DNA of 64,000 nucleotides from assembly GCA_045614255.1 (NCBI GenBank), contig JAZLCN010000054.1:34531-98530 (forward strand). Direction: 5' to 3'. This DNA is from Prevotella sp. Lineage in GTDB: Bacteria > Bacteroidota > Bacteroidia > Bacteroidales > Bacteroidaceae. Of this stretch, positions 4,127 to 57,150 are shown in pieces. A program made the position numbers and the translations under genes. Below the pieces are notes generated by a model that was given only the letters and a program-made list of their open reading frames with translations, did no database searches and was not told where the DNA came from. Position 1 is the stretch's first letter. Every line of letters starts with the position of its first letter.

Positions 4127-4153
4127 GTTCGCTTCGCTTAAAACCTCAAAACC
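4127..4153. repeat. Short 8-mer array (AAAACCTC x2) and GTTCGCTTCGCT motif between convergent genes
   Basis: Read directly: gttcgcttcgcttaaaacctcaaaacctcat. Confidence 0.5.
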
Positions 4154-5116
4154 TCATCTATGTCCGCCAAAATTGCCTCTCCTATTGCCTCCGCCGTTAG
4201 ATTGGCCTTGTAACTTTACTCTTGGAGAATTTCCCCTTAGAGACTCTATGCGCCCCTTGTTTAGTCCGCTATTGCTTGGGCGTATTGATGTGCCTTGGTT
4301 GCGATTAATTGTTGAAGGACGTCTTGATGTTGTGCTACTGCTGTTTCTGTTGTTGCCAAAACCTCCACGCTGCCCTCCAGACACTCCGTTTGTATTACGC
4401 TCACCATTGTTTATAGAAGGTCTGCTGCCATGATTCTGCTGATTGTCATGACGGTCTATAGCATTATTCTTATTATTGACTCTGTCGTCTCTACGTTTTC
4501 CAAAGTTGCTGTTGCCATGGTTATTGTCTCTACCGTTGCGATTTACAGTAACAGTTGTGGAACTTCCAATACCATTAGGTCTGTTTCTATACTCTCCACG
4601 GTCCCATCTGTCGCGCATGCCACCATGGTTGCGGCTACCGTTTGAGCGGAAATGACTAGTGCGGCCATGATAATAGCCATGCTGCCCGTGATGTCTCCAG
4701 CTGTGACCTCCTCTATATGTTGCATAAAAAGCTGGTCGGCCAAAGTACAAGTAGTGGCGGCGTGGATAGCGTGCGTATATCCTAAAGTGCCAGTAACCAG
4801 CATCCCAGTATAGTGGGCGGAAGAAATAAGCTGCAGCACGGAATGCATTCCACTGCCACTCCAAGAGGATATAGCTCATGTCGAGATTGCGGCGCTCCCA
4901 GTATGTGCCGAATACGTCATTGCGACTGGTTACTCCCATCAAGTAGTCAAGATTAATCTCATAAGCGGCCTCATACTGCTCAGATGACAGATTGAGCTCG
5001 TATGCCATCTTGTCTGTAAGGAACAGGGCTTCGTTACGTGCCTGCTCGTATGTCATCGCATTGGCTGATAAACTTATTGTCAGCATTGCAACTATTGATA
5101 ATATTATTCTTCTCAT
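4154..5116 (-). CDS. Hypothetical secreted protein with an aromatic-rich middle region and a long disordered R/G/N/S-rich tail
   Basis: Start reassigned to MRRIILSIVAM (ATG 5116), which gives a signal peptide; helical N-domain TDKMAYELNL..; low-complexity C-terminal half. Confidence 0.75.
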   Translation of the reverse strand: MRRIILSIVAMLTISLSANAMTYEQARNEALFLTDKMAYELNLSSEQYEAAYEINLDYLMGVTSRNDVFGTYWERRNLDMSYILLEWQWNAFRAAAYFFRPLYWDAGYWHFRIYARYPRRHYLYFGRPAFYATYRGGHSWRHHGQHGYYHGRTSHFRSNGSRNHGGMRDRWDRGEYRNRPNGIGSSTTVTVNRNGRDNNHGNSNFGKRRDDRVNNKNNAIDRHDNQQNHGSRPSINNGERNTNGVSGGQRGGFGNNRNSSSTTSRRPSTINRNQGTSIRPSNSGLNKGRIESLRGNSPRVKLQGQSNGGGNRRGNFGGHR

Positions 5117-5155
5117 ATCAATGTGGTTTTTTGCGTTAAACTTACTTTTCTGATG

Positions 5156-5163
5156 CAAAAATA
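5156..5163 (-). promoter_or_regulatory. Bacteroidota -7 promoter element TATTTTTG
   Basis: Matches TAnnTTTG about 40 nt upstream of ATG 5116. Confidence 0.6.
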
Positions 5164-5185
5164 CTAATATCTATAAATAAAGACA

Positions 5186-5220
5186 AGGGAAAATCCCTAA
5201 ATGATTAGAGGGAAATCCCT
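5186..5220. promoter_or_regulatory. Two palindromic boxes AGGGAAAATCCCT / AGGGAAATCCCT (candidate operators)
   Basis: Boxes at 5186-5198 and 5209-5220, between two divergent -7 elements. Confidence 0.5.
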
Positions 5221-5269
5221 ATTCGTTTGTTTTTTACTAAAATACAACATTTTTCTCATATTTTATAAT

Positions 5270-5277
5270 TATCTTTG
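5270..5277 (+). promoter_or_regulatory. -7 promoter element TATCTTTG for wzi
   Basis: Consensus TAnnTTTG just upstream of ATG 5286. Confidence 0.65.
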
Positions 5278-5285
5278 CAACTGCA

Positions 5286-6866: not shown

Positions 6867-6869
6867 CAG

Positions 6870-9619: not shown

Positions 9620-10555
9620 TCATTTCTGAGTTTTTGCGGTTCCTGGTCTCCTGCTGCTGAGCCAATAGTATAACTTAGGACAATATATATTTAGTTCTCT
9701 GGCTACGAAGACCAAAAAATACTTTATTTTTTGATGTCTTTTCATGAAAAGCATCTTATCTGCAGTAGAACGAAGAGGGTGATTGAAGAACTCACGACGT
9801 TCAGCTATACTCATTTCAACAACTTTTGCTTTTTCTGATTTTTCAGAGTCATGGTCATTGTCACATATTCCACAGACTGATGGAGTGGTCAAAACGGGTA
9901 TTCCTTTATTGTTGGCTCTTATACCGTATGCCCAATCGCCGCAGCAATGTATATAATCGTTGCCTAATAGTCCGATAGCATCCACTGTATCTTTTGATAC
10001 TAACAGGATATTTGCGCATGTCATGCTACAGGGTTCAGGTTTGCCTGTAGGTTCAACAACTTTAAAGCGTCCAATGACAGGAAAACTATATACAATTCCT
10101 CCATAGGTAAATTCTTTTCGGTCTGTGCTACAGCATGTCCCTACATAAACTCCGCTTTTACCTTTTGTAGTGATGGCATAGTGGTGGGTTTGCAATAATT
10201 GTTCGAATGTATTCTTTTCAAACAAGGTGTCGTCATTCATAAGCAGATAGAAGTCCCATTTGTTATGCATCTTATATGCTTCTTGCCACGCTTCTTGCAT
10301 TCCGCCTGCCCAGTATAATGTACCAGAACCTTTTATTATAAATATGTCTTTGTCATGAAATTCTATTTTAATAGCTTCAGATGTGCCATCAGTGCTACCG
10401 TCATCAGTAATGAAAAATGCTAGATTTATTTTTTCTGATGTTGACGAGTTGCATGTACTCTCTGCTTCAAAAACCGAATGCAGTGACTTTATTGTCAGCT
10501 CTTTTCGGTTATGGCAGGTTAGGATAACAGCTATGTTGTATGTTGTTATTGTCAT
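9620..10555 (-). CDS. Glycosyltransferase family 2
   Basis: LTCHNR, TDDGSTDGT, LYWAGGM, LMNDD. Confidence 0.88.
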   Translation of the reverse strand: MTITTYNIAVILTCHNRKELTIKSLHSVFEAESTCNSSTSEKINLAFFITDDGSTDGTSEAIKIEFHDKDIFIIKGSGTLYWAGGMQEAWQEAYKMHNKWDFYLLMNDDTLFEKNTFEQLLQTHHYAITTKGKSGVYVGTCCSTDRKEFTYGGIVYSFPVIGRFKVVEPTGKPEPCSMTCANILLVSKDTVDAIGLLGNDYIHCCGDWAYGIRANNKGIPVLTTPSVCGICDNDHDSEKSEKAKVVEMSIAERREFFNHPLRSTADKMLFMKRHQKIKYFLVFVARELNIYCPKLYYWLSSRRPGTAKTQK

Positions 10556-10561
10556 CGCTTA

Positions 10562-11755
10562 TTATATGGCATGCAGAAAATCTATAATCTTTTCTGTTTG
10601 CTTTTTAGGTGTCTTGTTATTATATATAAACTCTGAGGCCTTAACGCCAAAGGCATTTAACTCGCTTGTCGGCTTGCTGCAAATCTCCATCATCTTGTAG
10701 GAAAGATGTTCTACATTTTCTTCTTCAATGAATAGCAGGTGTTCATGATAGTCTGTAGGTATGCAAGGCAGTTTAAACATCAGGGTAGGAGTTCCGGATG
10801 CCATATACTCCAATGTCTTTGAAGGAAAGAAATAACTGGTAAACTCCTCGCTGGGTGGTACAGGATTAACCAATAATGTTGCCTGACGTTGTTTTTCCGT
10901 CAACTCCTTACGAGTCATCCTCTCCATATAAATTATTCGTTTATCTTTTTCCGCACGGGCCTTAATCACTTTTTCAAATTCACCATTACCTCTTATCCAT
11001 AACTGACAGTTTGCATCCTTTATCTTGTCAAATGCTTCAAGTAATATTCCAATTCCATATCTTGCCCCTAAATTTCCTGTATACATTATTGATTTCACAC
11101 TACTCTCTTTTTTGTTTATTAAGGCAGGATTTGACTCATTATTGTATATTCCCTCCATCAACAGCCAAGGCTTATTGCCTACTGGCATTTTATCTTTCAT
11201 CCCTTCAGCCAAGAATATATAACCATCAATAAATTCGTAATGACTGCCTTTTTTGGCATTTGTCAAAGGAGAAATTTTATTATTCAGCCTTGTTAGTATC
11301 GTCTCATGAGGTACTGTATATTCAGGTAAGTCAGTCAGCAACATTACAATTTTCACATCGGGATGCAGTTGCTTTAGTTTGGTTATTATCTCAATATAAT
11401 GATAGTTATAAAAGATTATAACTTTATCGCCTTGAGTCTCATCACACCATTTCGTAGATTCTTTCAATACTCTACGCTTTGTGTCTATCCTTTTAAAATA
11501 TGTTATGTTCAAATACCCTATACTATCCATATTTTCCCCACATGCAGACGGAACAAATGGCGTTTTACAGAAAGGAGGGTAAGAACCCATTAATGGCACA
11601 TTCAAAATAGAATACTTAACATCATTCTCATCCAATCCACGTATTATAGCCTTAGATAAGTTATGCGCAGCCCAGTCCAAGCCAATCTTAGAAATTGACG
11701 CACATTGCTCTATAATACTATCAGGATAGTATTGGGACACGAAAAGTATTCTCAT
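10562..11755 (-). CDS. Glycosyltransferase family 4
   Basis: MYTGNLGARYG, LLVNP, FPSKTLEYMASGTP. Confidence 0.88.
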   Translation of the reverse strand: MRILFVSQYYPDSIIEQCASISKIGLDWAAHNLSKAIIRGLDENDVKYSILNVPLMGSYPPFCKTPFVPSACGENMDSIGYLNITYFKRIDTKRRVLKESTKWCDETQGDKVIIFYNYHYIEIITKLKQLHPDVKIVMLLTDLPEYTVPHETILTRLNNKISPLTNAKKGSHYEFIDGYIFLAEGMKDKMPVGNKPWLLMEGIYNNESNPALINKKESSVKSIMYTGNLGARYGIGILLEAFDKIKDANCQLWIRGNGEFEKVIKARAEKDKRIIYMERMTRKELTEKQRQATLLVNPVPPSEEFTSYFFPSKTLEYMASGTPTLMFKLPCIPTDYHEHLLFIEEENVEHLSYKMMEICSKPTSELNAFGVKASEFIYNNKTPKKQTEKIIDFLHAI

Positions 11756-11830
11756 TTATATAACTTTATTATATATTATATAACGTTGTTAATTCCTAAA
11801 TATTGTCATTTCCTATAATGATGACAGTTT

Positions 11831-13006
11831 TTATTGGAGAAATAACAACTTATACAAGTCCTTAATCTTACCCCAATCAAATAATGGGTAGTTAACATTA
11901 AAATTTCTTATATTATTTGATAGTAAATCTCGCAACTCTTCCTCTTCTATGAGTCTTAACATTGCCTCTGCAAGAGCTTGCGCATCATTTACCTTGAAAA
12001 GAATTCCATTCTTATTATCTATTATTTCTTTAAATCCTTCTAAATCTGATGCAATGATAGGAGTGTTAAAAACAAATGTTGTTTGTGGTATGCCACTTTG
12101 TGACATCGTTTTATACGGGCACAAAACTGCATAAGCATTAGTTATTATATATGCCAGTTCCCTATTAGGAATAAATCGTGGCAAGACAACAAAGCGCTTG
12201 TGGGTAATGATCTGACTCAATATCGGATCATTTCCTCTACCCGCCAATACGATTCTGTAATTTTGCATTTTATCTCCTAAAATATCAACAGCTTCTTTTA
12301 TTAAAGCCAGACCTTTATATGGCAACATATAACCATAAAAGAGGAAATATTTTGCAGGTAAAGACTCCATTGGAGGCGTCTGTGGAATTGAAGAATATGC
12401 CTCAAATAATCCAAAAGGAACTATCTTTATTTTATCTTTGATTATCCCATTTATATTTATAATATTATTATAACTATTTTTGGAAAAAACTATTATTTCA
12501 ATTTCTTTTTGTATAGCTGCTTTTACAAGTTTAGAAGGCTTTAACGATGGATTGAAGTGATTTAAGACTTCATGCAACGACAAAACAACTTTTGAGTTCA
12601 AATATTGTAAAAAATAAATATATCTATCCATATCGTAATTAGCAACTATATTTACGAGTAAATATCCTTGCTTATCAATCTGTCTAGCTATATTCCTAAT
12701 CTGCCTTTTTATAATATACTCAGCTATATTCCTAATGACAGGAACCGTTTTATAAGGACGCATTGTTTTCACCAAAAACAGATTCAGATTTTCACAGTCT
12801 GCATACGACCGTATTACTTTCATCTTCTGTTCTGGTACTTTTGTTATACCGATACCATCAGTACTAAAACAACATTCTGTACTTTCTGGCTCTTGAATCT
12901 TATCAAGATAATAAATATCTATAGCAAAGCCATCTTTGCACAATTGTTTAGCAAGCGGCAATGTACTTCCTAAAAAACCTTCCTCTATAAACGCTATCCT
13001 TTTCAT
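11831..13006 (-). CDS. Glycosyltransferase family 4
   Basis: FLFYGYMLPYKGL, PYKTMSQSGIP, PIIASDLEGFKEII. Confidence 0.88.
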   Translation of the reverse strand: MKRIAFIEEGFLGSTLPLAKQLCKDGFAIDIYYLDKIQEPESTECCFSTDGIGITKVPEQKMKVIRSYADCENLNLFLVKTMRPYKTVPVIRNIAEYIIKRQIRNIARQIDKQGYLLVNIVANYDMDRYIYFLQYLNSKVVLSLHEVLNHFNPSLKPSKLVKAAIQKEIEIIVFSKNSYNNIININGIIKDKIKIVPFGLFEAYSSIPQTPPMESLPAKYFLFYGYMLPYKGLALIKEAVDILGDKMQNYRIVLAGRGNDPILSQIITHKRFVVLPRFIPNRELAYIITNAYAVLCPYKTMSQSGIPQTTFVFNTPIIASDLEGFKEIIDNKNGILFKVNDAQALAEAMLRLIEEEELRDLLSNNIRNFNVNYPLFDWGKIKDLYKLLFLQ

Positions 13007-13014
13007 AGAGATAA

Positions 13015-14238
13015 TTAATTCTGAAAAGAATTTAGTATATTATTCATCATCCCAAGATATTTGGCATAATAATCATCCGCAAATTTTATCATTGAGGAAG
13101 AATTAAAATTCTTGAATTTATCATATACATAGCTAGCACATGGAGATTTAAATGTTTTTGAGATACAACTGACTCTCCATTCTGCCAACCCTGCAGAGTC
13201 AAGCAAATGCTTAATTTTACTTGACTTATCTGTTGTTATTATGCCATTAAGTCTTTTCAGACCATAGTTATCAAAACTAAAGAATGGGACAGAATTGTGT
13301 ATGGAAACAACAATTGGATGCATATTATGACCAATATATCCTGAAGAATACTTAATCAGAGCAAACCAGTCTATCGGTGATAACGGCAGATGAATTTCTT
13401 TATTTAATCTACCAAAACTTTCTTTTTGCGAGAAAGGAAGTTTTACACAGGTATAGCCATCTTTTGCCGCCAAGATTTGAAATTCATCCAACCACTTCTG
13501 TGACACAGTTGTAGCATTTATAAAACTCATAAGTATATATTTTTCTGGAAGTTCATACTTATCGAGAATTTCATTCTTATTAGGGAGCAATCCCTCTGCA
13601 TTATATTTAAAAGCAAAGACAGGATCAGGAGTTACTTCAGGGTCTACCTTATTTTTTGTAATATGGCAAAACATCTTTTTTGTCCAAGTATCACGAACCG
13701 ACACATAAGAATATTGTTCTATTTGTTTCGCCATCTGTCTGCATAGTTGATTAGAGAAAAACTTATATTCGGAATCCTGGCTTGATGCGGAGAGCAAGGC
13801 AACAGGAACTTTCTTAGGCAGAAGTTCATTCCATGTAGCCCAGAAAGGGTTTGGGAAGATCCTGTCACTTGTAGCATGCTCTATTGCAACAATTCTTTTA
13901 CACGGAAATATTAAACGTTCCCATTCCGTATGATGCTGACAAACCGCATCGCTACCAATAATTACCGCCTCTATTTTTTCTTGTAATATAACAGATGCCA
14001 CATCATCGTCTGTTCTACAGAGCTTAGTCTCAGTCCATATTGTTTCTCTTATTTTTTTTTGACATAACAATTGAGATTCAATGGTATGACTCTCATAAGA
14101 ATACTCCATGTCTTCTGAAATCCAGTTGATGACAATTGGCAAATATCCTTTGTTCTTAAGAAACATATATGTGGACAACAACTGTAATGTTGCACCGAAA
14201 TTTATAGCTGAATGGTATGCTAAAAGTCCTATTTTCAT
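13015..14238 (-). CDS. Polysaccharide pyruvyl transferase family protein
   Basis: MKIGLLAYH..NFGATLQ, IGSDAV, SVRD, PDPVF, NMHPIVVSI; ATG 14238 overlaps the upstream stop (ATGA). Confidence 0.85.
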   Translation of the reverse strand: MKIGLLAYHSAINFGATLQLLSTYMFLKNKGYLPIVINWISEDMEYSYESHTIESQLLCQKKIRETIWTETKLCRTDDDVASVILQEKIEAVIIGSDAVCQHHTEWERLIFPCKRIVAIEHATSDRIFPNPFWATWNELLPKKVPVALLSASSQDSEYKFFSNQLCRQMAKQIEQYSYVSVRDTWTKKMFCHITKNKVDPEVTPDPVFAFKYNAEGLLPNKNEILDKYELPEKYILMSFINATTVSQKWLDEFQILAAKDGYTCVKLPFSQKESFGRLNKEIHLPLSPIDWFALIKYSSGYIGHNMHPIVVSIHNSVPFFSFDNYGLKRLNGIITTDKSSKIKHLLDSAGLAEWRVSCISKTFKSPCASYVYDKFKNFNSSSMIKFADDYYAKYLGMMNNILNSFQN

Positions 14239-14789
14239 ATAATATGCATTCGACAATATGGTGAATACTTTAAATTTTGTTCTTTTCTTTCCCCTATCTT
14301 CGCTGCTGGTATTCCACCCATTACTGTATAGGGAGCTACATCCTTGGTTACAACAGCTCCAGAGGCGATTACAGCCCCCTTCCCTATTCTAACTCCTGGC
14401 AATATAATTGCTCTACTGCATATCCATGCATAGTCTTCTATAATAACTTTTCCTCCAATGCTCCTAAAATCAGCCGAATTCATATCATGATGAAGAGTCC
14501 ATATTATAGCATCATAAGCAATTGTTACATTTTCTCCAATATCTAAACCTTTACGTGCATCTAACAAAACCTGTGGTCCTATACTGCATCCATTTCCTAT
14601 ACGCAACCCCTTAGGATTACGTATTTTAACAGATGAGAATATTGACACCTTACTCGCAATGCTAGCCCCCATACGTCTTAGCAAAAACGACCTGATATGT
14701 GTCGAAGGAATATGTTGCCAGAGATTCATTTTCATGAATCCCCATGACATTCTCCAACATTCTATTTCTTTTTTTATGAAAGCTTTCAT
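14235..14789 (-). CDS. Hexapeptide-repeat O-acyltransferase
   Basis: Left-handed beta-helix repeats; IEDYAWI, ILPGVRIGKGAVIASGAVVTKDV, GGIPA. Confidence 0.88.
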   Translation of the reverse strand: MKAFIKKEIECWRMSWGFMKMNLWQHIPSTHIRSFLLRRMGASIASKVSIFSSVKIRNPKGLRIGNGCSIGPQVLLDARKGLDIGENVTIAYDAIIWTLHHDMNSADFRSIGGKVIIEDYAWICSRAIILPGVRIGKGAVIASGAVVTKDVAPYTVMGGIPAAKIGERKEQNLKYSPYCRMHII

Positions 14790-16309
14790 ATTTTGTATTT
14801 TATTTTTCTCAGAACATGAACTATCTTTTGCTTCTCACTATGCGTTAGAATAAGATAATATGCCAAAAGGCTATAGACAACTATTCCTAAGCCAAACACG
14901 ATCATTAGGCGAGCCATTGATTCATCCATAACATTACATACCCCCCAAAGGAATATTAAAGTTGCTATATGGATTATTATAAGCGGTACAATTAATTTTG
15001 AAACATATTCCTTTACAGATATTCCTATCTGTTTTTTTGCAAAATATAGTCTAAAACATAGAGCGAAGACTTCTATCACGCATGCTATTATCAATGCAAC
15101 CTCAGCTTTTTGCCCTTGAGCTATAGAGAAATAAGACAATGGTAATATTGACAACATCAGTATGCAGATATTTATTGTGTACCATTTTATTTTACCAGTT
15201 GACTGTATTGCAGACATTAATCCTGAAGACAACTGAAAAACAATAGATAATATTATAATAAGCCTTGTAAATTCCTCTGTATTCTCTGGAATATCAGAGA
15301 GCCACAATTTCAGGATATAATGAATTTCTATGAAAATTGGCATAGCCACTATGCCAATACTCAGTGTTGAGAATTTCGTTAAACCTAGAACCAAAGCATT
15401 CATTTTATTTTCATCTTTGCTTCCATGGCTTTCCATCAACTGAGGATTAATACTTTTTTGTATCGTTTGCGAGAAATATCCAAGCACACCATTAACCTGA
15501 TTGCTTATACCATATGCCGCATTGATTACTGTACCGAAAAAATGGTTTAAAACCAAAGCAATCCCTTGGTTTCTACCTATAATAGCTATTGAGGCAAGGG
15601 TATTCCACCCTGCAAAACTGCATAAATCCCGAAATAATTGCTTATTTTTACAATAATGCCTTGATATAAATATATTGCTGTACATTTTTTGTACATAAAT
15701 AAACTTCATCAAGAAAATTACTATCGCAATAAACATTATCATATAACCATAATAATTAAGCCTGTCTCCTGATATATATGGTAATGATAATGCTAAAAGT
15801 AATTTCAGTAATACCTCTGCAGTTCCAATTATTGAAAAAACCAACATATCCTCCTTTGCATTCATGATAGCATCAAATGGAACTGCAGTAATAGTAAAAA
15901 ATATACTTACAACAAGATAGTGAAACAAATTACGGGCTATAGTAACACTATCTGATGGTATATTCATCACATGATTCAACAGTAAAGGGATGGAAAATTC
16001 TACAAGTAAAATAACAATTATACCTAATATTATATGCAAAACAAGGCTTAGATTATATATCTCCAACAATTTTATAGAATCTTTTTCACCAATACAGACA
16101 GAAAAAAAACGCTGTGTAGATACTGTCATAGCTCCATTAAGGAAAGCAAGCATAGCAACAACTCCTGCAATAAGATTATATAATCCAAATCTTTCAGCAC
16201 CTAAATTACCCAATACGATAGGTACTGTCCACAATGATATAATCATGCAGAGTAACACTTTCGTGTATAAAATAATGGTATTTATAATTATCTTATTTGT
16301 TCCTCTCAT
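14786..16309 (-). CDS. wzx: Polysaccharide flippase (Wzx/MOP family)
   Basis: About 12-14 TM segments; LG...FGLYNLIAG, STQRF, GVVINAAYGI-like, PQLMESHG. Confidence 0.85.
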   Translation of the reverse strand: MRGTNKIIINTIILYTKVLLCMIISLWTVPIVLGNLGAERFGLYNLIAGVVAMLAFLNGAMTVSTQRFFSVCIGEKDSIKLLEIYNLSLVLHIILGIIVILLVEFSIPLLLNHVMNIPSDSVTIARNLFHYLVVSIFFTITAVPFDAIMNAKEDMLVFSIIGTAEVLLKLLLALSLPYISGDRLNYYGYMIMFIAIVIFLMKFIYVQKMYSNIFISRHYCKNKQLFRDLCSFAGWNTLASIAIIGRNQGIALVLNHFFGTVINAAYGISNQVNGVLGYFSQTIQKSINPQLMESHGSKDENKMNALVLGLTKFSTLSIGIVAMPIFIEIHYILKLWLSDIPENTEEFTRLIIILSIVFQLSSGLMSAIQSTGKIKWYTINICILMLSILPLSYFSIAQGQKAEVALIIACVIEVFALCFRLYFAKKQIGISVKEYVSKLIVPLIIIHIATLIFLWGVCNVMDESMARLMIVFGLGIVVYSLLAYYLILTHSEKQKIVHVLRKIKYKI

Positions 16310-17486: not shown

Positions 17487-17523
17487 TATGTATATTGATA
17501 GCAACTGAAATTAAGAACGGTAA

Positions 17524-36096: not shown

Positions 36097-36106
36097 TAAT
36101 ATTTAG

Positions 36107-36180
36107 ATTATGAATTATGAATTATTAATTATGAGATGATATATATTAATCATAATTCTTAATTTCAATTCAAAATTATA
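36107..36180. repeat. Heptamer array TGAATTA followed by a reverse-complement arm (intergenic hairpin)
   Basis: attatgaattatgaattattaattatga ... tcataattcttaatttcaattc. Confidence 0.7.
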
Positions 36181-36194
36181 TAATAAAAGTAACT

Positions 36195-39100: not shown

Positions 39101-39434
39101 TGAGCGCCGCCGCATGGGTATGGCCATCAAGTACTCTGCAATCCTCGGTGCTGGTGCCCGTCTGCGTCCTATCCTCATGACCTCACTTGCTATGATTATT
39201 GGTCTGCTGCCATTGATGTTTGCAAGTGGTGTAGGTAAGAATGGTAACCAAACTCTTGGTGCGGCTGCCGTTGGAGGTATGCTCATTGGTACTCTTTGTC
39301 AGGTGTTCATTGTACCAGCATTGTTTGCGGTATGTCAGTGGGCACAGGAGAAGATTAAGCCAATAGAGTTTGATGACGATGATGCTCATGTTGACACTGA
39401 GCTGTTGCAATATACACATCCTGTGGAAAAGTAG
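36195..39434 (+). CDS. RND efflux permease (HAE1/AcrB family)
   Basis: FIKRPVLS, LPIEQYPNIAPP, IAIVVDDAIVVVE, AKNAILIV, RLRPILMTS. Confidence 0.95.
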   Translation: MTFTNFIKRPVLSTVISIFFVLLGLIGLISLPIEQYPNIAPPTISVWTSYQGADAQTVLNSVITPLEESINGVENMTYLTSSATNDGSASITVYFEQGSDADMAAVNVQNRVSQAQALLPAEVTRVGVTVSKRQTSQVIMYTLTTDDGRYDDEFLTNYNNINIVPALKRVSGVGDVQSPGLKTYSMRIWLQPEKMKQYNLIPSDVSAALAEQNIEAAPGKFGEQSDVAYEYVMRYKGRLKTAEEYGDIIIRSDANGQILRLKDVANVELGGLQYNVSMRNNNNPSVMGMVQQIAGSNANQIATDVKSVLEEQAKNFPPGVKYKINYDVTEFLYASIEEVVFTLVLTLLLVFLVVYVFLQDFRSTLIPMIAVPVALIGTFLFLWIFGFSINLLVLSALLLAIAIVVDDAIVVVEAVHAKLDQGYKSALVASIDAMNEISGAIISITLVMSAVFVPVSFMGGISGTFYREFGITMAVSILISAVNALTLSPALCAIFLKPHEEHGDKKMSRVDRFHAAFNVQYEKLLGKYKKGVENVIKRRVLAASAIVIGIVVLVVTMNTTKTGLIPDEDTGTLFCTISMAPGTSQARTQEVIDYVDKMLAANPAIENREQLVGYNFIAGAGSDQATFIIKLKSFHDRPAGFFYMLSGLWEGDGISRFFVNPLANTSVLGTIYKQTASIKDAQILAFAPPMVSGFSATNGITFAMQDKTGGDLNRFFEITKNYLAELNKRPEIATAMTSYNPNYPQYMVDVDVAKCKQNGIGPNTILSTLQGYYGGMYASNFNAYGKLYRVMIQGSVDSRMSPDGLSNIYVRTPNGMAPVSEYCTLRRVYGPSNINRFNLFTCINVNASPADGYSSGQAIQAVEEVAAQVLPEGYGLDYSGLTRSEQESSDSTAIIFVLCIVFVYLILSAQYESYILPLAVILSIPFGLAGAFLFTQIFGHSNDIYMQIALIMLIGLLAKNAILIVQFALERRRMGMAIKYSAILGAGARLRPILMTSLAMIIGLLPLMFASGVGKNGNQTLGAAAVGGMLIGTLCQVFIVPALFAVCQWAQEKIKPIEFDDDDAHVDTELLQYTHPVEK

Positions 39435-39529
39435 ACAAGTAGACGAGTAAACGAGTTGGCAAGTTACTTGCAACTAGTATTACGAAATAAACAAACAAGC
39501 AACTTATCAACTCGTTAACTCGTCAACTA
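39431..39529. repeat. Octamer array AGT(T/A)GAC(A/G) with an inverted arm
   Basis: AGTAGACA AGTAGACG AGTAAACG AGTTGGCA ... CAACTTAT CAACTCGT TAACTCGT CAACT; begins inside the TAG stop. Confidence 0.75.
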
Positions 39530-39541
39530 AAAAAATATACA

Positions 39542-40924: not shown

Positions 40925-40929
40925 ATTTA

Positions 40930-41029
40930 AGTAGACAAGTAGACGAGTTGACAAGTTAATAAGTTAATGGCGTTTATAAATCAAATAACTCGTCACTCGT
41001 CAACTAAATACAACAACTCGTCAACTAAA
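40930..41029. repeat. Octamer array with an inverted arm
   Basis: AGTAGACA AGTAGACG AGTTGACA AGTTAATA ... ACTCGTCA CTCGTCAACT ... CAACTCGTCAACT. Confidence 0.75.
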
Positions 41030-43220: not shown

Positions 43221-43436
43221 AAGTTGACAAGTTGACGAGTTGTTTGATTAAGTTGACAAGTAGACGGGTTGACGAGTAGACAAGTTGTTTGATTGAGTTG
43301 ATAAGTTGACAAGTTGTTTGATTGAGTTGACAAGCAGACAAGTTATTAGAACCCGAGGTAATGTCCTCTATCTTCTTCTATCTTCTTCTATCTCCCTCTA
43401 TCTCCTTTTAATCCACGCATCTCTCATCCCTCATCA
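43221..43436. repeat. Composite array: octamer (43221-43344), decamer CTATCTTCTT (43368-43405), heptamer CTCATCC (43419-43436)
   Basis: Read directly; lies between a -7 element (43459-43466, minus strand) and the radical SAM start codon. Confidence 0.8.
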
Positions 43437-45613: not shown

Positions 45614-45680
45614 TGAGATTGTGAGGTCGTAAGGTTGTGAGGTTATGAGTTACTAGCCACAACTAACAACCAGGCAACTT
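45614..45680. repeat. Octamer array TTGTGAGG with a C-rich downstream arm
   Basis: ttgtgagg tcgtaagg ttgtgagg ttatgagt ... ccacaactaacaacc. Confidence 0.6.
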
Positions 45681-45694: not shown

Positions 45695-46417
45695 ATGGAC
45701 TTTTTAGAAGGCGAGATAATATATCTTAATAAACCCTACGGCATGTCTAGCTTCGGTGCGTTGGCGCGCATCCGCTATCTTATATCCAAGAAGATTGGAG
45801 TAAAACGGGTGAAGACAGGACATGCTGGTACGCTTGACCCTTTGGCCACTGGTGTGCTGATACTATGTACTGGTAAGAAGACAAAGGAACTGGACCAGAT
45901 GCTGTATCATAGCAAGGAATACACCGCAATATTGCAGTTAGGAGCAACAACTCCGAGTTTCGACAAAGAGCACACCGTTGACCATACCTATCCTACGGCT
46001 CATATCACGCGCGAACTGATAGAGGAGACGCTGAAACAGTTTGTTGGTGAGATAGAGCAGGTGCCACCAGAGTATTCGGCCGTTAAGGTTGACGGTAAGC
46101 GCGCATACAAGATTGCGCGAAAAGGAGAGGCTGTAGAACTAAAAGCCAAGACGCTGAAGATAGACGAGATAGAGCTGACGGCATTCGACCCGCAAAAAAT
46201 GCAGATGAGCATTCGCGTTGTATGCAGCAAAGGCACATATATAAGAGCACTTGCCCGCGATATTGGCAAGGCACTTGGCAGTGGAGCGTTCCTCGAAGCC
46301 TTGTGCCGTACACGTATCGGCGAGGTGCGCATAGAGGAGTGTATCACAATGGAAGAATTTCCGGAGTGGTTGGAGAAGGAAACTTCCCCTTGCCCCTCAG
46401 AAGTTGAGGCTGTCTAA
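45695..46417 (+). CDS. truB: tRNA pseudouridine(55) synthase
   Basis: KTGHAGTLDPLATGVL, PPEYSAVKVDGKRAY, CSKGTYIR. Confidence 0.96.
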   Translation: MDFLEGEIIYLNKPYGMSSFGALARIRYLISKKIGVKRVKTGHAGTLDPLATGVLILCTGKKTKELDQMLYHSKEYTAILQLGATTPSFDKEHTVDHTYPTAHITRELIEETLKQFVGEIEQVPPEYSAVKVDGKRAYKIARKGEAVELKAKTLKIDEIELTAFDPQKMQMSIRVVCSKGTYIRALARDIGKALGSGAFLEALCRTRIGEVRIEECITMEEFPEWLEKETSPCPSEVEAV

Positions 46418-46548
46418 GGTCAAAGGTCTAAGGTCAAAGGTCTGAGATCAAAGGCCAAAGGTCAAAGGGCTTCTTCTACGAACTCCATAAGTCCCAAAAT
46501 CCTAGAAACTCCAAAATTAAGCATTAAGAATTAAGCATTAAGCATTAT
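46413..46548. repeat. Heptamer arrays AAGGTC(A/T) and TTAAGCA in the truB-queA spacer
   Basis: ctaaggtcaaaggtctaaggtcaaaggtctgagatcaaaggccaaaggtcaaagg; ttaagcattaagaattaagcattaagcatta. Confidence 0.75.
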
Positions 46549-52303: not shown

Positions 52304-52352
52304 TTTTAGTATATCCCTCAACCAGCTCTAAGGATTCGGATTAACGTTGAAC

Positions 52353-52522
52353 GATTAACGATTAACGATGAGCGTTGAACGATAAGGAATCTCAAAATCC
52401 TTATACAACAAAATTATATTAATTTCTGTCCAAATAATCCTTCAAATCCCAAAATCCTTAGAACGATTAAAGATTAACGATTAACGATGAGCGGTGAACG
52501 ATAAGAAATCCCCAAATCCTTA
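52353..52522. repeat. 51-bp direct repeat containing AACGATT heptamers
   Basis: Copies at 52353-52403 and 52472-52522, 4 mismatches. Confidence 0.8.
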
Positions 52523-52557
52523 GAAAAAATCATCAATTCTCAGTACCAAGATTTTTT

Positions 52558-52976
52558 GAAAAATTTTGACAAACCCCTCCCGAAAATCCCCAATTAACTG
52601 CCTCAAAACTCGAGAATTCTGAACAAAAAAATATTTTGCCCGAAAAAACGCCAAAAAATGCATATAACTCTAAAACCTTGAACCTCAAAACCTTATAACC
52701 TAAAACACGAAAGTGTGCAAAAAATTTGGCCTTTTTAATTTCCAAAACCTATCGTTTTACTCACCAAAACCATAGGTTTTGCTTTCCAAGATGATAGGTT
52801 TTGCAACGCAAAACCATAGAAAACGGAGCTCAAAACCTATGTTTTTGAAAAATAAAGTCGTGTTTTTGGCGTTTCAATACCATTTTTCTTGCTTTCAAAC
52901 CCCAATTTCTTCTCTAGATTGAAAAATAAAAATGTCAAAAATTTTCGGAATTTTTACTACGAAAATTTTTGACAAA
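52558..52976. repeat. AT-rich phased A-tract element (11/22-bp period) bounded by AAAATTTTGACA motifs
   Basis: CAAAACC/GGTTTTG units recur at about 11/22-nt spacing across 52743-52845; 12-bp inverted repeat at 52560-52571 / 52933-52944. Confidence 0.6.
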
Positions 52977-53001
52977 ATCATTTCAGAACTGTGACATAAA
53001 C

Positions 53002-54495: not shown

Positions 54496-54500
54496 AATTA

Positions 54501-54570
54501 TGAACGATTAGCGATTAGCGATGAACGATTAGCGATGAACGATGAACGATTAACGATTAACGTTGAACGA
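54501..54570. repeat. Ten in-register heptamers T(G/T)A(A/G)CG(A/T)
   Basis: tgaacga ttagcga ttagcga tgaacga ttagcga tgaacga tgaacga ttaacga ttaacgt tgaacga. Confidence 0.9.
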
Positions 54571-54584
54571 TTACTATTGCAAAT

Positions 54585-54687
54585 AACTCGTCAACTCGTT
54601 TACTTGTCAACTTGTTTACTTCAACAAACAACTTGTCAACTTGTTTACTCGTCAACTTGTCAACTTAAAAAATCAACTTGTCAACTT
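54585..54687. repeat. Octamer array (CAACTTGT/CAACTCGT) overlapping the mtnN 3' end
   Basis: Read directly; the last codons of mtnN are AAG TTG ACA AGT TGA. Confidence 0.8.
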
Positions 54688-55362
54688 CAATAAAAAACTC
54701 TTTGTTACGTTAAACGAGTTGTCGGAAATCTTATCCCAGAAGTCGAAGTACTGTTGTGCTTTGTTGTCCTTGAGCGGTATGTCGCTGATGATGCGGAAAC
54801 TGATGAAAGGCACATCATACTGGTGGCATACATGGGCTATGGCTGCTGACTCCATGTCAACCGCCATGGCGTCGGGGAAGTTGGCTATGATGGAACTCAT
54901 CTTCTCACGCGAGTCAACAAACCAGTCACCAGTAACAATCAGTCCCTTGTTTATCTTTGTTCCGCAATCCACACTCATGGCTTTCTCTATGAGAGTGGCA
55001 TCAGAGTCGAAACGTGCAGGACAACCGATAATCTGTCCGTAAGCAACCTCGCTGCCACAATAAGCGTCATGATAGCAAGTTTGTGTGCTTGCCACTACCT
55101 CTTGTACCTCAAGTGATGTGTCTGCACCTCCAGCCACACCAGTAGATATTACCATGTCTGGTGCGAAAGCATTAATCATGTCGGTTGCGCCGATGGCAGC
55201 GTTCACCTTGCCGATGCCGCACTGGTGCATGATAAGGGTGCTGCTACCCATTGTTCCAGTAACGTAAACACGTCCATTGCGTTTGGTCTCTTCTGTATTT
55301 TCAAGTAACGATTTGATGCGCTGGAACTCTTTGTCCATTGCGATGATTATTCCTATTTTCAT
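54673..55362 (-). CDS. mtnN: 5'-methylthioadenosine/S-adenosylhomocysteine nucleosidase
   Basis: MKIGIIIAM..E, CGIGKVNAA, STGVAGG, GDWF, VDMESAAIAHVC, FRIISD. Confidence 0.95.
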   Translation of the reverse strand: MKIGIIIAMDKEFQRIKSLLENTEETKRNGRVYVTGTMGSSTLIMHQCGIGKVNAAIGATDMINAFAPDMVISTGVAGGADTSLEVQEVVASTQTCYHDAYCGSEVAYGQIIGCPARFDSDATLIEKAMSVDCGTKINKGLIVTGDWFVDSREKMSSIIANFPDAMAVDMESAAIAHVCHQYDVPFISFRIISDIPLKDNKAQQYFDFWDKISDNSFNVTKSFLLKLTS

Positions 55363-55373
55363 ATTGTTTTTTT

Positions 55374-55492
55374 AAGTTGACGAGTTGATTTCTAAGTTGA
55401 CGAGTTGACAAGTTGACGAGTTGTTTGATTCAGTTGACGAGTTGACAAGTTGATGAGTTGACAAGTTAATTGTTGAAGTTGACGAGTTGACG
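55374..55492. repeat. Octamer array AGTTGAC(A/G) directly upstream of the mtnN start
   Basis: About 12 units, interrupted by TGTTTGATT-like spacers. Confidence 0.85.
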
Positions 55493-55509
55493 ATTTATTT
55501 GCTATTAAA

Positions 55510-55566
55510 CTCTCATCCCTCATCTCTCATCCCTCATCTCTTATCTCTCATCCCTCATCCCTCATC
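55510..55566. repeat. Heptamer array CTCATC(C/T) overlapping the TolB-like gene stop
   Basis: The ORF ends ATG AGG GAT GAG GGA TGA. Confidence 0.85.
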
Positions 55567-57053
55567 GTTACTTTCTCTCCCTCAGAACCCTTCAGTGTAT
55601 TGGCGAAGTTGCGTGGATTGATGTCTACAGGTCCGTTCATAAACTCCACCACGTTGTAACTTAAAGTCATAACTTTATGTAGCTCGGGGTCTGCCTGTGG
55701 CAACTCGAATGGCTTAGAGGCATTGCCGTTGCTGTCGATATGAGAGATGAAAGGGCGAGTGTAGTTGCCATCATTGCGACGAGAGTTGAATATCATCCAT
55801 CTGCCGTTGCTTGACCATGAGTGATAACTCTCGCTCCTGTTGGAGTTTAGTCCGGTCATTGGCTTGCTCTCCATGGTGCGCAAGTCCATTATGTATAGGT
55901 CGGCATCGTTGTGCCAAACATGGAAGCAACCATATTCTCCCTGAGCGTATACAAGATAGTTGCCGCAAGGCGAGATGCGGGGCAGGGTAGCGCTCTTATT
56001 GGTTGCCGTGGCATCCCATATAATCTCAGTATCACCAAATCGCATTTCCTTTTCATAGAACGGTTTGCGGCAGATGCTGTATTTTATTTCGTTGTATCTG
56101 AAATTTGCGTCATACTCTTTGCCGATGGAGTCGCTGAACTCTATTCTTGCACTGCAATAGTAAAGCCATTTGCCATCTGGCGACCAGAATGGGAATGACT
56201 CCATCTCTTCTTTAAGGCAAGAGACTCGCATTATGGTGTTATTGTCGGCATCGAATAAAATCAGGTCGCTCTCGGTGTCAAACACCTCAACCTTATTCAG
56301 GTTTTTAGTGTGGAAGTTCTGTTGCGTGCGGTTTGATGAGTATGCTATCAGGTTAAGACGTGGATGCCATGCTGGATAGACACCTGCACTGAGCAGTGAG
56401 TCGTGCTTCATGTTTATCTTTTTAATTTTCCCGTCCATGGCAATGATAGTGCCACCGTTCTGCTGACGGGCATGGAACTGCATCTTGTTAGGATTGTAGT
56501 TCTGATAACTGTGGCAATTAATGCATTGCTCACCGCTCTCGCTGCTGCAAAGCATATTGTCGTAGATTACCGACTCGTCGAAATTCTCGAGACATCTTTG
56601 ATTTATGGTCAGTTGCTCGTATGTTACGTATGACGGCGGTATCAGTCGGTAACTGATATACGGATTGATGGAATCAGGAGACACACTAATGGCAAACGGC
56701 TTGTGCTGCGTCCATCCGTCATTGTTTTCGGTATAAACAGTAACCTGCAACTTATTGCCTTTGGCTTTGTTGAGCAGTTCTTTCCATTCATCAATGTCGG
56801 GCATAGCCTTTATTCCGCCGCACAATATCTCGCTGTCCTGATAAGATATGCGCGTCACCATGTTTGTGGCCTCGCCTTTATACATGAAACAAAGCGGTGA
56901 TATGTTCACTGGAATAGTTGTTTCAACATAATCAGGGTAAATATCAGGTATAGCCCCCGATTCTTTGTAATTCTCTGGAACCTTTATGTTGTTACAGGCA
57001 ACCAATGTTATGGTAGCAAAAACAACTGACAATATATATGTAATCTTTCTCAT
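55548..57053 (-). CDS. TolB-like/PD40 beta-propeller lipoprotein
   Basis: Lipobox TLVAC; CINCH; YPAWHP, FPFWSPDGKWLYY, LPRISPCG, YHSWSSNGRWMIF. Confidence 0.8.
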   Translation of the reverse strand: MRKITYILSVVFATITLVACNNIKVPENYKESGAIPDIYPDYVETTIPVNISPLCFMYKGEATNMVTRISYQDSEILCGGIKAMPDIDEWKELLNKAKGNKLQVTVYTENNDGWTQHKPFAISVSPDSINPYISYRLIPPSYVTYEQLTINQRCLENFDESVIYDNMLCSSESGEQCINCHSYQNYNPNKMQFHARQQNGGTIIAMDGKIKKINMKHDSLLSAGVYPAWHPRLNLIAYSSNRTQQNFHTKNLNKVEVFDTESDLILFDADNNTIMRVSCLKEEMESFPFWSPDGKWLYYCSARIEFSDSIGKEYDANFRYNEIKYSICRKPFYEKEMRFGDTEIIWDATATNKSATLPRISPCGNYLVYAQGEYGCFHVWHNDADLYIMDLRTMESKPMTGLNSNRSESYHSWSSNGRWMIFNSRRNDGNYTRPFISHIDSNGNASKPFELPQADPELHKVMTLSYNVVEFMNGPVDINPRNFANTLKGSEGEKVTMRDEG

Positions 57054-57067
57054 AATCTAACTTTCTG

Positions 57068-57150
57068 AGTAGTTAAAGGGAGTCAAAGGAAGTTATCGTT
57101 CGCTTTGCTCACTGAGGAGTTAAAGGACGTATGCTCCTCACAACCTCACA
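57068..57150. repeat. Short arrays GAGTTAAAGG / CCTCACAA with CGTTCGCTTTGCTC
   Basis: Read directly in the spacer between the DUF6057 and TolB-like genes. Confidence 0.55.

Follow-up and report, generated by a model that had tools for sequence, protein, structure and literature searches.

Tandem arrays between the genes of the window

The window, a 64,000-nt stretch of the genome of a gut/rumen Bacteroidales (Prevotella sp.), holds genes whose spacers are occupied by tandem arrays of short units. Arrays were located by TRF, by direct reading and with our own script. From the region 36.1-55.6 kb the script returned 19 arrays that avoid gene interiors, and TRF or reading added arrays at 4140-4156 and in 57054-57150. 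All arrays named in a preliminary description of this DNA, at least 12 of several unit types, were present (TRF, reading). The features are as follows:

4127..4156 (-): AAAACCTC x2.1 in a 27-nt convergent spacer (TRF and reading); past the stop codon of the minus-strand gene 4154-5116 it reads GAGGTTTT (G-rich)
36097..36194 (+): RND adaptor/permease spacer; AATTATG x4 (36107-36134) after the stop, complementary TCATAATT-type arm before the start; weak hairpin (MFE -15, z -1.3)
39429..39528 (+): permease/outer-membrane-factor spacer; G-arm AAGTAGAC x4.5 (39429-39464), C-arm TCAACTCG x2.8 (39507-39528); long hairpin ending 14 nt upstream of the ATG
40929..41028 (+): outer-membrane-factor/lpxA spacer; G-arm AAGTWGAC x4.6 and copies of C-arm AACTCGTCA, folding as a hairpin (z -3.0); lpxA in fact starts at 41039
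43221..43344 (-): array of the AAGTTGAC family, containing a higher-order repeat of 29/45 nt; in the direction of the radical-SAM gene start (43211) it reads GTCAACTT
43367..43435 (+): TCTATCTYCT x4.1, then CTCATCC units; C-type half of a divergent spacer, ftsX side
45614..45680 (+): uppP-truB spacer; TGAGGTTG x4.5 after the stop, CCACAAC-type C-arm before the truB start
46412..46547 (+): truB-queA spacer; GTCWAAG x8 after the stop, ATTAAGC x4.6 before the queA start
52339..52500 (+): GATTAAC/GATGAAC-family arrays (52339-52383 and 52462-52488) downstream of typA
52552..52982 (-): copy of a non-coding dispersed element, ~415-430 nt, with sharp ends of TTGTCAAAAAWTTTC
54500..54573 (-): AACGATT x10; read as AATCGTT (C>G 17:10), stopping 8 nt short of the luxS start
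54581..54699 (-): AACTTGTC x10; reads AAGTTGAC (G>C 21:8) directly after the stop of a nucleosidase-like gene (54673)
55369..55493 (-): AGTTGACG x12; read as GTCAACTC (C>G 30:9), it precedes the start at 55362
55510..55566 (-): CTCATCC x8; read as GATGAGG (27 G, no C), it spans the stop of a PD40-repeat gene (55548) and continues beyond it
57054..57150 (-): TTGTGAGG-type units after the stop at 57151, then CCTTTAACTCC/CTTTGACTCC units before the start at 57053; z -1.7 for the spacer

The polarity rule proposed for the window, with the G-rich strand following stop codons and the C-rich strand preceding start codons in mRNA sense, was confirmed for all 10 listed cases after stops and all 8 before starts. 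The G:C ratio in sense was 11:4 after the stop at 39434, 15:1 at 45613 and 27:0 at 55548, and 2:7, 9:30 and 10:17 before the starts at 39542, 55362 and 54495. As had also been stated, no major array breaks a gene; only four trivial rows of 2.5-2.9 copies fell inside window ORFs. Folding differed among the spacers. The hairpin at 39435-39541 reached an MFE of -35.1 kcal/mol (z -7.9), matched by 0 of 200 shuffles, and the uppP-truB spacer (45614..45680), whose arrays most congeners lack, forms a weak hairpin (z -1.4). The two arrays of the truB-queA spacer (46412..46547) are non-complementary and the spacer is unstructured (z +0.6), the array at 54581..54699 is not complementary to the adjoining AATCGTT array, and the C-type leader 55369..55493 is essentially unstructured as RNA (MFE -1.7, z +2.4).

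Abundance and polarity across the genome

Genes were called with our own ORF and codon-usage caller (2157 genes, 85% coding), which gives approximate start positions. TRF detected 809 rows of period 7-10 in the whole genome, spread over 430 of 1306 intergenic regions, so that about one third of all gaps between genes contain runs of 7-10-base repeats; five within-spacer shuffles yielded just 5-21 such rows. The excess over chance is ~60-fold, and spacers hold nearly all arrays: 366 period-7 rows lay in 0.45 Mb of intergenic DNA vs 66 in 2.5 Mb of coding DNA. This one genome contains dozens of unit families that are unrelated to one another. The same families return at dozens of loci, carrying the same higher-order repeats and the same inner motifs outside the repeats; the inner motif AATTTGCTNCCGC / GCGGNAGCAAATT is common to cargo-less and single AATGAAG arms. 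About 18 arrays sit 8-12 nt upstream of a TAnnTTTG -7 box and may thus fall outside the mature mRNA.

A genome-wide repeat census with an orientation test, as the preliminary description had suggested, extended the rule from the window to the genome. Arrays within 30 nt after stop codons were G>C in 217:41 cases (p=4e-30) and those within 30 nt before start codons C>G in 121:37 (p=1e-11). Spacers with two arrays had the order GC 88 times and CG 3 times (p=1e-22), and complementary pairs less than 150 nt apart had the G-arm on the left in 52:3. The rule had been said to hold on both strands; it is strand-symmetric and strong in all four gene arrangements, including convergent (56:15) and divergent (34:10) spacers. 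Within families it is nearly absolute, e.g., 14:1 after stops and 1:19 before starts for AAGAATG. The TTAAGCA array before queA, initially listed as ambiguous, is no longer so at the family level: throughout the genome, arrays before starts show AAGCATT in sense 12:0, and arrays after stops show its complement 7:0 (family orientation 12:0 and 0:7).

Background G-depletion before start codons had been named among the observations that would speak against the proposal. Array-free 50-nt flanks had equal G and C (16.7% each, 479:507) after stops and 12.4% G vs 13.6% C before starts. Because these flanks lack the polarity, background composition does not explain it. Start-codon triplets were rarer on the sense strand before starts (151:31), and Shine-Dalgarno-like triplets were depleted there, too; a selective explanation of the polarity is inseparable from plain G/C content. 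Compared with background G-depletion, a shared origin or mechanism is the better-supported reading.

Cargo genes between complementary arms

The preliminary description had linked inverted arrays to small four-helix-bundle genes in Bacteroidota, and this link was verified. In this genome, all five IVP genes (four-helix bundle, PF05635/TIGR02436) lie between complementary arrays, as do both GxxExxY genes and one four-helix-bundle-plus-suffix gene, so that filled versions of the arrays do exist. All eight cargo genes are co-oriented with the upstream host gene, and the G-arm precedes the cargo's own start in 8/8 cases here and at most of 75 loci elsewhere. Among congeners, 23 of the 25 IVP loci with usable flanks had arms outscoring all shuffles, and the G-richer arm was on the left at 25/25; one of these loci (L065) has arms of the AAGTTGAC family, the main family of the window. 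Across many phyla, 67 of 75 IVP loci had significant arms (58 G-left, 5 C-left, 4 ties), with 7 as the best period in 55 loci. The order G-rich first and C-rich second, on either strand, is a property of the element class across phyla. None of 40 IVP loci tested was located in rRNA.

Arms and cargo duplicate as one unit. The alignment of the C13 and C31 IVP copies begins with the first G-arm unit and ends with the last C-arm unit, and their flanks are unrelated; homology that stops precisely at the outer ends of both arms identifies arms and gene as one unit. No target-site duplication was visible when these two cassettes were compared. Each of the ten commonest array families belongs to a cargo-bearing unit here or in a congener, as its arms or, for GATGAAC, as flanking arrays rather than arms. 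Full cassettes are far outnumbered by hairpins without cargo and by single arms built from these unit families. IVP number and array density correlated moderately (rho 0.56; 21 genomes, one 20-kb sample each).

The suggestion that the arrays may be decayed sites found no support. A profile search of all six-frame-translated spacers found no IVP remnants beyond intact or stop-bearing copies, and none in cargo-less loops. Orthologous spacers in 29 congeners were mostly 0-40 nt long and without arrays, which marks the arrays as lineage-specific gains rather than relics. The frdA-frdB spacer is filled in three species and measures 19-46 nt in the empty sites read. Elsewhere, congeners differ in the units found in a given spacer. 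Strains differ in the unit number of arrays, and one family can replace another: conspecific contigs showed indels in unit multiples and one family swap, always with polarity kept, and the luxS-side AACGATT array (54500..54573) varies in unit number.

Interpretation and alternatives

We lean towards reading the arrays as the arms of small, palindromic elements that sit between genes and form one class. Each arm would be a tandem run of a 7-10-nt unit, and arms may stand paired, orphaned or beside an arm of a different family. A full cassette would run from the host stop through the G-rich arm, a small cargo (an IVP four-helix-bundle gene, a GxxExxY nuclease-fold gene or non-coding DNA) and the complementary C-rich arm to the host start, a layout like that of an ORF-bearing 23S rRNA intervening sequence lodged between protein genes. 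Given the fixed order of the arms, the mRNA-sense rule follows automatically for any orientation of the neighbouring genes. Replication slippage may add and remove units. An element landing at any gene junction would presumably be tolerated only with the G-poor arm beside the start codon, where it would offer little structure and neither ATG/GTG/TTG nor Shine-Dalgarno-like triplets; its complement would then lie beside the stop codon, carrying stops in three frames. No dispersal agent was identified in the genome, which yielded a single, weak hit to a Y1 transposase and one reverse transcriptase.

In transcripts, complementary arms could form a long stem such as that predicted at 39435-39541. 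RNase III, which this genome encodes, could cut such stems, separating the cistrons and releasing a cargo RNA, by analogy with rRNA intervening sequences. The first and last arrays were complementary in only 45 of 142 multi-array spacers (shuffles ~20), so that most arrays cannot act as stems. The sense strand showed no G·U excess in hairpin stems (146 vs 154) or IVP cassettes (92 vs 112), and sense and antisense folding energies did not differ. From this, arm pairing looks maintained at the DNA level, or recent.

The arrays might instead be ordinary SSRs grown by local slippage, their polarity reflecting only two independent constraints on the RNA, which would keep leaders before starts poor in G and free of start codons and trailers after stops rich in stop codons and poor in C, with complementary arms and the IVP association as by-products and neither an element nor a cargo link. 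Length polymorphism between strains, different units in the same spacer of congeners, the two thirds of multi-array spacers that are non-complementary, the triplet depletion before starts and the unstructured C-type leader would all fit. Even so, we hold this unlikely: it leaves aside the identical inner motifs and higher-order repeats at dozens of loci, the joint duplication of arms and cargo and a complementary-pair frequency about twice the shuffled expectation, while the "wrong" G-arm before the cargo start and equally strong polarity in convergent spacers, which have no start codon, run against it.

Quite improbable, in our judgement, is that the arrays are binding sites of a post-transcriptional regulator or of a pentameric IVP/Avd-like protein, with orientation set by the strand or RNA bound. 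IVP genes are always accompanied by arrays, MacGregor proposed the same function for TAACTGA repeats, and, by our own reading, one IVP clade (L069, L070, L072, L076, L077, L092) uniformly has GGAGTTAA/GGAAGTTAA-like arms. However, other IVP clades have unrelated arms, so this link may be co-inheritance, and dozens of unrelated families face five IVP genes in one genome. Transposable elements of the REP/BIME or MITE type, with a genome-encoded transposase recognising repeated subterminal units, would account for the palindromic layout, intergenic location, high copy number and discrete cassette boundaries, and a separate 430-nt element is polymorphic between strains. We consider them very improbable, as so many unit families exceed what one transposase could serve, the sole Y1_Tnp hit is marginal (26 bits), arrays differ in unit number rather than in presence or absence, and the two compared cassettes lack target-site duplications. 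G-quadruplex/i-motif regulatory repeats (the reading of Rehm et al.) or intrinsic terminators are hardly credible: the positional rule matches that of G4-forming heptamers and hairpins do follow stop codons, but only 7 of 1028 arrays have at least four GGG runs, which contradicts quadruplexes, a terminator scan flagged 0 array hairpins (terminator-like sites 10 vs 15.1 in shuffles), and A-runs, not T-runs, lie 3' of the hairpins.

Relation to known repeats

STRR heptamers of cyanobacteria and long SSRs are tandem 5-11-nt units enriched in the non-coding DNA of certain lineages, and the arrays resemble them as short tandem units in such DNA; the term "long SSRs" reportedly goes with Mrazek et al. 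in 2007. These repeats are cited in PMC4679880. To our knowledge, neither a polarity rule nor a cargo link has been described for them. REP/BIME elements and MITEs, such as Correia elements, are likewise small palindromes, abundant between genes and able to fold in mRNA, whereas here the arms consist of short words in tandem, drawn from many families, with no clear RAYT/transposase and no target-site duplication seen.

ORF-bearing 23S rRNA intervening sequences are said to have been treated by Ralph and McClelland in 1993. Those of Leptospira, Coxiella and others contain an ORF for an S23p/IVP protein (bioRxiv 10.1101/2024.02.27.582315). They share the cargo family PF05635/TIGR02436, long-stem inverted repeats and sporadic distribution with the cassettes; in the latter, the host site is a protein-gene spacer and the arms are tandem 7-10-mers of fixed G-to-C polarity. 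RNase III excision, known from the rRNA sequences, would be a prediction for the cassettes.

The system is not unrecognised, as had first seemed possible: the orientation rule is already known for G-rich heptamers, GGGAATC in Xanthomonas and GGGGAYT in Nostoc PCC 7120 (Rehm et al. 2015, PLoS One, PMC4692102). Their G-strand lies ≤50 bp after the stop (sense) or ≤50 bp upstream of an ORF (antisense), whatever the ORF orientation; Xanthomonas has 70-75 convergent inverted GGGAATC pairs per genome, and the heptamers are transcribed, with function given as unknown (PMC4692102). Near-confinement of tandem units to spacers and the positional rule are shared. That study covers one G-tract family in each genome, read as G-quadruplexes, vs dozens of families with units of 7-10 nt here, nearly all without G-tracts. 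New are the many non-G4 unit families, the Bacteroidales host and the demonstrated IVP/GxxExxY cargo link, which that paper does not mention.

Intergenic TAACTGA direct repeats of marine Beggiatoaceae, cyanobacteria and a few Bacteroidetes (MacGregor 2015, PMC4679880) are also start-oriented heptamers with strain indels in 7-nt steps and one strand with stops in three frames. They differ in that only one unit is involved, usually in 2-6 copies, with hardly any inverted pairs and without a described cargo.

The dispersed 430-nt element

The element copied at 52552..52982 has ~35 copies in the genome and matched no Rfam family. The TRF repeats at 52670-52819 (TAAAACCT and a 22-nt repeat) are internal to it. 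It adjoins luxS in another strain, not here, and arrays of the GATTAAC/GATGAAC family often flank it.

Genome-wide census of intergenic arrays

The assembly (2.99 Mb, 67 contigs, 90% complete; contigs of this genome are numbered C, with the window at C54:34531-98530) was annotated with our own caller based on ORFs and codon usage, which gives approximate start positions, and TRF was then run genome-wide. Named relatives suggest that the organism is a member of the Bacteroidales from gut or rumen, probably Prevotella-like; the best-named IVP relative (IVP, the four-helix-bundle protein of 23S rRNA intervening sequences) was an uncultured Prevotella. The gene content of the window includes an RND efflux operon, lpxA, ftsX, uppP, truB, queA, typA, and luxS. 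All arrays listed in a preliminary description of this sequence, i.e., tandem runs of 7–10-nt units in intergenic spacers, were recovered by TRF and by direct reading of the window, and no substantial array lay inside any window gene, as that description had also stated.

Across the genome, the intergenic DNA (0.45 Mb) gave 366, 317, 115, and 112 TRF rows with periods 7, 8, 9, and 10, whereas the coding DNA (2.5 Mb) gave 66, 82, 27, and 6; in a separate list of non-coding arrays, the numbers were 384, 340, 127, and 125, respectively. The 809 period-7–10 rows were distributed over 430 of 1306 spacers (~1 in 3), against 5–21 after within-spacer shuffling. Dozens of unit families are represented, and the largest of these comprise 25–54 arrays each. 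With ~1000 arrays and one third of its spacers occupied, this genome represents an extreme case. Two stretches of the window were recorded alongside the census:

Window 10000-18000: low-GC block (0.33-0.36 vs ~0.44 elsewhere) with minus-strand genes, partly rejected by the codon-usage caller; it has the appearance of an island gained by horizontal transfer.
Window 25096-25305: 33/66/99-nt tandem repeat (74-76% matches) within the minus-strand ORF 25057-25740, which is a repeat-containing protein bearing no relation to the intergenic arrays.

Arrays are oriented relative to gene ends

Read in mRNA sense, arrays within 30 nt past a stop codon were predominantly G-rich (G>C 217:41, p=4e-30, genome-wide), and those within 30 nt ahead of a start codon predominantly C-rich (C>G 121:37, p=1e-11, genome-wide). 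The polarity rule proposed for the window thus extends to the genome, and all 18 of the originally listed stop-side and start-side cases conformed to it in the array list and on reading by eye. Inside single unit families, the orientation was almost absolute: the scores after stops and before starts, respectively, were 14:1 and 1:19 for the AAGAATG family, and 0:8 and 21:0 for the AACTCGTC family. The AAGCATT family, with equal G and C, scored 0:7 after stops and 12:0 before starts, which settles the orientation of the array before queA that had been called ambiguous.

As originally claimed for both strands, the rule applies whatever the gene arrangement, to co-directional spacers as well as to convergent (56:15) and divergent (34:10) ones. 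Its strand-symmetric equivalent is that, from either strand, G-type arrays come first and C-type arrays second: two-array spacers showed the order GC in 88 cases vs CG in 3, and multi-array spacers were of the G-then-C type in 122 cases vs 20 with a C-type ahead of a G-type array. Random orientation and background G-depletion before starts had been named as explanations that would remove the rule; neither applies, given the counts above and given that array-free flanks were unbiased for G or C after stops (479:507) and no more than slightly short of G before starts. A rare exception was seen in the uppP-truB spacer of the congener G051 (locus L049), a 171-nt TTTACTA/TAGTAAA hairpin with the C-type arm first.

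The rule is not without precedent, and the system, put forward as possibly unrecognised, is not so: Rehm et al. 2015 (PMC4692102) reported the same positional rule, intergenic bias, and convergent pairs for GGGAATC in Xanthomonas and GGGGAYT in Nostoc, which they read as G-quadruplexes without mention of IVP genes, and MacGregor 2015 (PMC4679880) described TAACTGA repeats oriented toward start codons. Like those heptamers, the ~7-nt units investigated here are strongly enriched in intergenic DNA, and their G-rich strand is in sense orientation after stops and antisense before starts regardless of gene orientation. In contrast, G4-forming tracts are not a feature of the present arrays, only 7 of 1028 having at least four GGG runs. 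Since the unit families are not prone to G4 formation, the G-quadruplex explanation falls away and the polarity rule is shown to be general.

Complementary arrays enclose small cargo genes

The preliminary description proposed that inverted arrays flank small four-helix-bundle genes, and rightly so. ORFs for IVPs (PF05635/TIGR02436, Avd-like) have long been established in 23S rRNA intervening sequences. In this genome, complementary arrays enclose all five clear IVP genes, each time with the G-rich arm to the left; none of the five is in the window. On our reading of the translations, the host sites are probably frdA-frdB, etfA with an acyl-CoA dehydrogenase gene, pta-ackA, kduI-kduD, and ychF-lgt. 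Both GxxExxY genes (PF13366/TIGR04256) are enclosed likewise, as is one four-helix-bundle-plus-suffix gene, and each of the eight cargo genes points in the same direction as the host gene upstream of it.

The cassette, i.e., arms plus IVP gene, is one unit. The copies on C13 and C31 share ~80% identity from the first G-arm unit to the last C-arm unit, with nearly identical arms and unrelated flanks; the unit adjoins the host stop codon on one side and ends ~10 nt short of the host start on the other. Complementary array pairs fell into two spacing classes, one of 0–150 nt (74 pairs, G-left 52:3) and one of ~400–700 nt (27 pairs, including four IVP cassettes). A non-repeat inner motif, AATTTGCTNCCGC / GCGGNAGCAAATT, is common to cassettes, cargo-less hairpins, and single arms of the AATGAAG family. 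Moreover, each of the ten commonest families acts as arm or flanking array of a cargo-bearing unit, here or in a congener: AATGAAG, GATGAGR (two canonical families), and AATTATG around IVP genes and AAGGATT around a GxxExxY gene in this genome; AAGTTGAC (again two canonical families), AGGAGTTS, and AGGAGTGA around IVP genes in congeners; and GATGAAC as flanking arrays of the 430-nt element, a separate non-coding dispersed repeat.

Individual cassettes showed the following features:

C38:9105-9740 and C19:93035-93223: GxxExxY arms belonging to larger 41-46-nt tandem units (array plus fixed linker), with 3-5 repeats on one side.
C13:27815-28114: in-frame TGA in the IVP gene of the etfA/acyl-CoA dehydrogenase site, with intact arms, the sole sign of cargo decay seen.

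Cassettes in congeners and other phyla

Among 40 congeners, the number of IVP genes ranged from 0 to 10 per genome. At the loci with usable flanks, inverted arms scored above all 30 shuffles in 23 of 25 cases, and the G-richer arm was on the left in all 25. A cross-phylum set of 75 IVP loci (Bacteroidota, Acidobacteriota, Planctomycetota, Cyanobacteria, Desulfobacterota, Clostridia, CPR phyla, Proteobacteria, and others) gave arms above all 20 shuffles at 67, of which 58 were G-left, 5 C-left, and 4 ties; 55 loci had a best period of 7, and 10 had one of 8. Array density, taken from one 20-kb sample per genome, and the number of IVP genes were moderately correlated (rho 0.56, p=0.009, n=21).

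ORFs of this family within stem-bounded 23S rRNA intervening sequences are classical (bioRxiv 10.1101/2024.02.27.582315). The cassettes share with these a PF05635/TIGR02436 ORF inside terminal inverted repeats that could pair into a stem, in this genome, in congeners, and across phyla, but they differ in location: all five IVP cassettes lie between protein genes rather than in a 23S rRNA helix, none of 40 tested IVP loci was in rRNA, and the assembly contains no 23S rRNA gene. In open-access text we found no paper that connects arrays of heptamers or octamers with cassettes for IVP or GxxExxY genes located between protein genes. What is notable here is the abundance of the arrays, their many non-G4 families, their turnover between strains, and the explicit tie to cassettes of the intervening-sequence type.

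Arrays turn over between strains and species

This genome and two congeners have an IVP gene with arms in the frdA-frdB spacer; the two congeners have other arm units and an IVP ~45% identical (by eye) to the copy of this genome; the empty sites examined measured 19–46 nt and had no arrays. In 29 congeners, the uppP-truB and truB-queA spacers were mostly 0–40 nt long, and a few species carried unrelated unit families there. Three conspecific or near-conspecific contigs kept the arrays of the PD40-nucleosidase-luxS spacers with indels of ~21–53 nt (21 = 3×7) and rearranged units. In one of the three, a contig from a giraffe co-assembly (L195) whose flanking protein is 98% identical, both arrays of the nucleosidase-luxS spacer (window 54496-54672), AAGTTGAC and AATCGTT, were replaced by GAGTTTR and CCTCATC with preserved junction sequences. 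The G-then-C order was preserved in every strain variant of these spacers. Searches for other contigs by the exact truB or lpxA protein returned none.

Taken together, these site and strain comparisons show that the arrays are lineage-specific gains with fast turnover and not relics. The suggestion that they are decayed sites of a cargo-bearing element found no support: a profile built from 25 IVP sequences and run against six-frame translations detected no IVP remnants in cargo-less spacers at E<0.1, except for three uncalled IVP genes. Because they are hypervariable between strains, the arrays can serve as practical markers for strains and are a probable cause of broken assemblies.

Folding and RNA-level signals

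Complementary outer arrays were found in 45 of 142 multi-array spacers (~20 expected). Two window spacers formed strong hairpins (z -7.9 and -3.0), four formed weak ones (z -1.0 to -1.7), and one had no excess structure (z +0.6); a long C-type leader in the window was less structured than all of its shuffles. Stems bracketing a gene, in which its 5′ arm pairs with its 3′ arm, numbered 18 of 103 vs 10.8±2.9 in shuffles, an excess that we judged to consist largely of the cargo genes themselves.

Compensatory selection at the RNA level should appear as a strand asymmetry, with a sense-strand excess of G·U pairs, which was absent from hairpins and IVP cassettes alike: 43 complementary hairpins gave 146 vs 154 G·U, and 57 IVP cassettes of known transcript strand gave 92 sense-type vs 112 antisense-type transitions, with 277 transversions and no wobble signal. 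Sense and antisense MFE did not differ either, for co-directional spacers or for the 43 hairpins. Looping out as an RNA stem, put forward in the preliminary description, is a hypothetical behaviour of such spacers. The genome encodes RNase III. Were the stems to undergo processing at the RNA level, a built-in processing or insulating module would be present at a large proportion of the operon junctions of such bacteria.

Possible origins of the polarity

The G-then-C order was violated only by cargo genes, which sit within the palindrome. The polarity is, moreover, strand-symmetric and found in spacers of both the convergent and the divergent kind; it is shared by different phyla, and family swaps leave it intact. 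From these features we infer that it is a property of the element class rather than of each gene end. A palindrome landing at any junction would be tolerated only if its start-side arm were free of G. Such an arm would offer few ATG/GTG/TTG triplets, few SD-like triplets, and little structure, and its complement beside the stop would be C-poor and rich in stop triplets. In the arrays, start-codon triplets (151:31) and SD-like triplets (126:28) were fewer in the arm beside the start, and stop triplets (207:53) were enriched in the arm beside the stop. Start-region tolerance appears to be the most economical selective reason for the polarity, although with the present data it is inseparable from raw G/C content. 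If it applies, the polarity would allow the rules of translation initiation to be assayed directly in bacteria that dispense with Shine-Dalgarno sites. Alternatively, the polarity may have a mechanistic origin, the arms being written or copied directionally. Avoidance of Rho, for which a C-rich 5′ arm would be a rut site, was down-weighted, as a cyanobacterial cassette (L154) and the Nostoc repeats have this polarity too; cyanobacteria are not known to possess Rho.

By analogy with the 23S rRNA intervening sequences, cargo-bearing cassettes and the far commoner cargo-less arrays might form one pan-bacterial class of "messenger-RNA intervening sequences", a reading that we regard as unlikely. 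Its members would be self-contained palindromes with tandem-word arms that are actively written or homogenised rather than products of passive slippage, either through arm-to-arm templated copying or through a process in which the Avd-like IVP protein takes part. Their G-to-C polarity, being obligatory, would act as a design rule letting them sit at any gene junction, and RNase III would cut operon transcripts at the elements, as it does at 23S rRNA intervening sequences.

Other candidate identities and minor features

An approximate 18 arrays, mostly C-arms of the AATGAAG family, end 8–12 nt upstream of a Bacteroidetes-type -7 box (TAnnTTTG), for example:

C19:2693-2773, array near a TAnnTTTG box.
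C2:8602-8806, array near a TAnnTTTG box.
C9:8719-8799, array near a TAnnTTTG box.

Some arms may therefore precede a transcription start or carry an outward promoter. As a general explanation, outward promoters were rejected: the motif accompanied 7.3% of arrays vs 6.5% of the background, with the 8–12-nt distance confined to a sub-family. The cassettes resemble MITEs in their inverted ends, but two homologous cassettes had no target-site duplication and no autonomous partner was found. Intrinsic terminators are contradicted by a scan that flagged none of the array hairpins, whose stems are followed by A-runs and not T-runs. CRISPR arrays have 24–40-nt repeats with unique spacers of similar length, as opposed to contiguous units of 7–10 nt. 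Candidate genes for repeat mobility were single:

C13:16326-16547: Y1-transposase-like ORF, the one marginal Y1_Tnp match (26.3 bits, E=1.5e-5) for a RAYT gene as expected of REP/BIME systems.
C51:42427-43140: the single reverse-transcriptase gene of the genome (516-aa frame).

Rfam families were detected neither in the window nor in the 430-nt element, which has one copy in the window:

Window 52552-52982, minus strand: 430-nt element.

This element is ~415–430 nt long and present in ~35 copies genome-wide (e.g., loci L272-L283); in another strain a copy lies directly downstream of luxS, a position free of it in the window. Its ends are sharp, with TTGTCAAAAAWTTTC at both, and its near-invariant core is rich in palindromes and devoid of an ORF. 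It often lies between GATGAAC/GTTCATC arrays.
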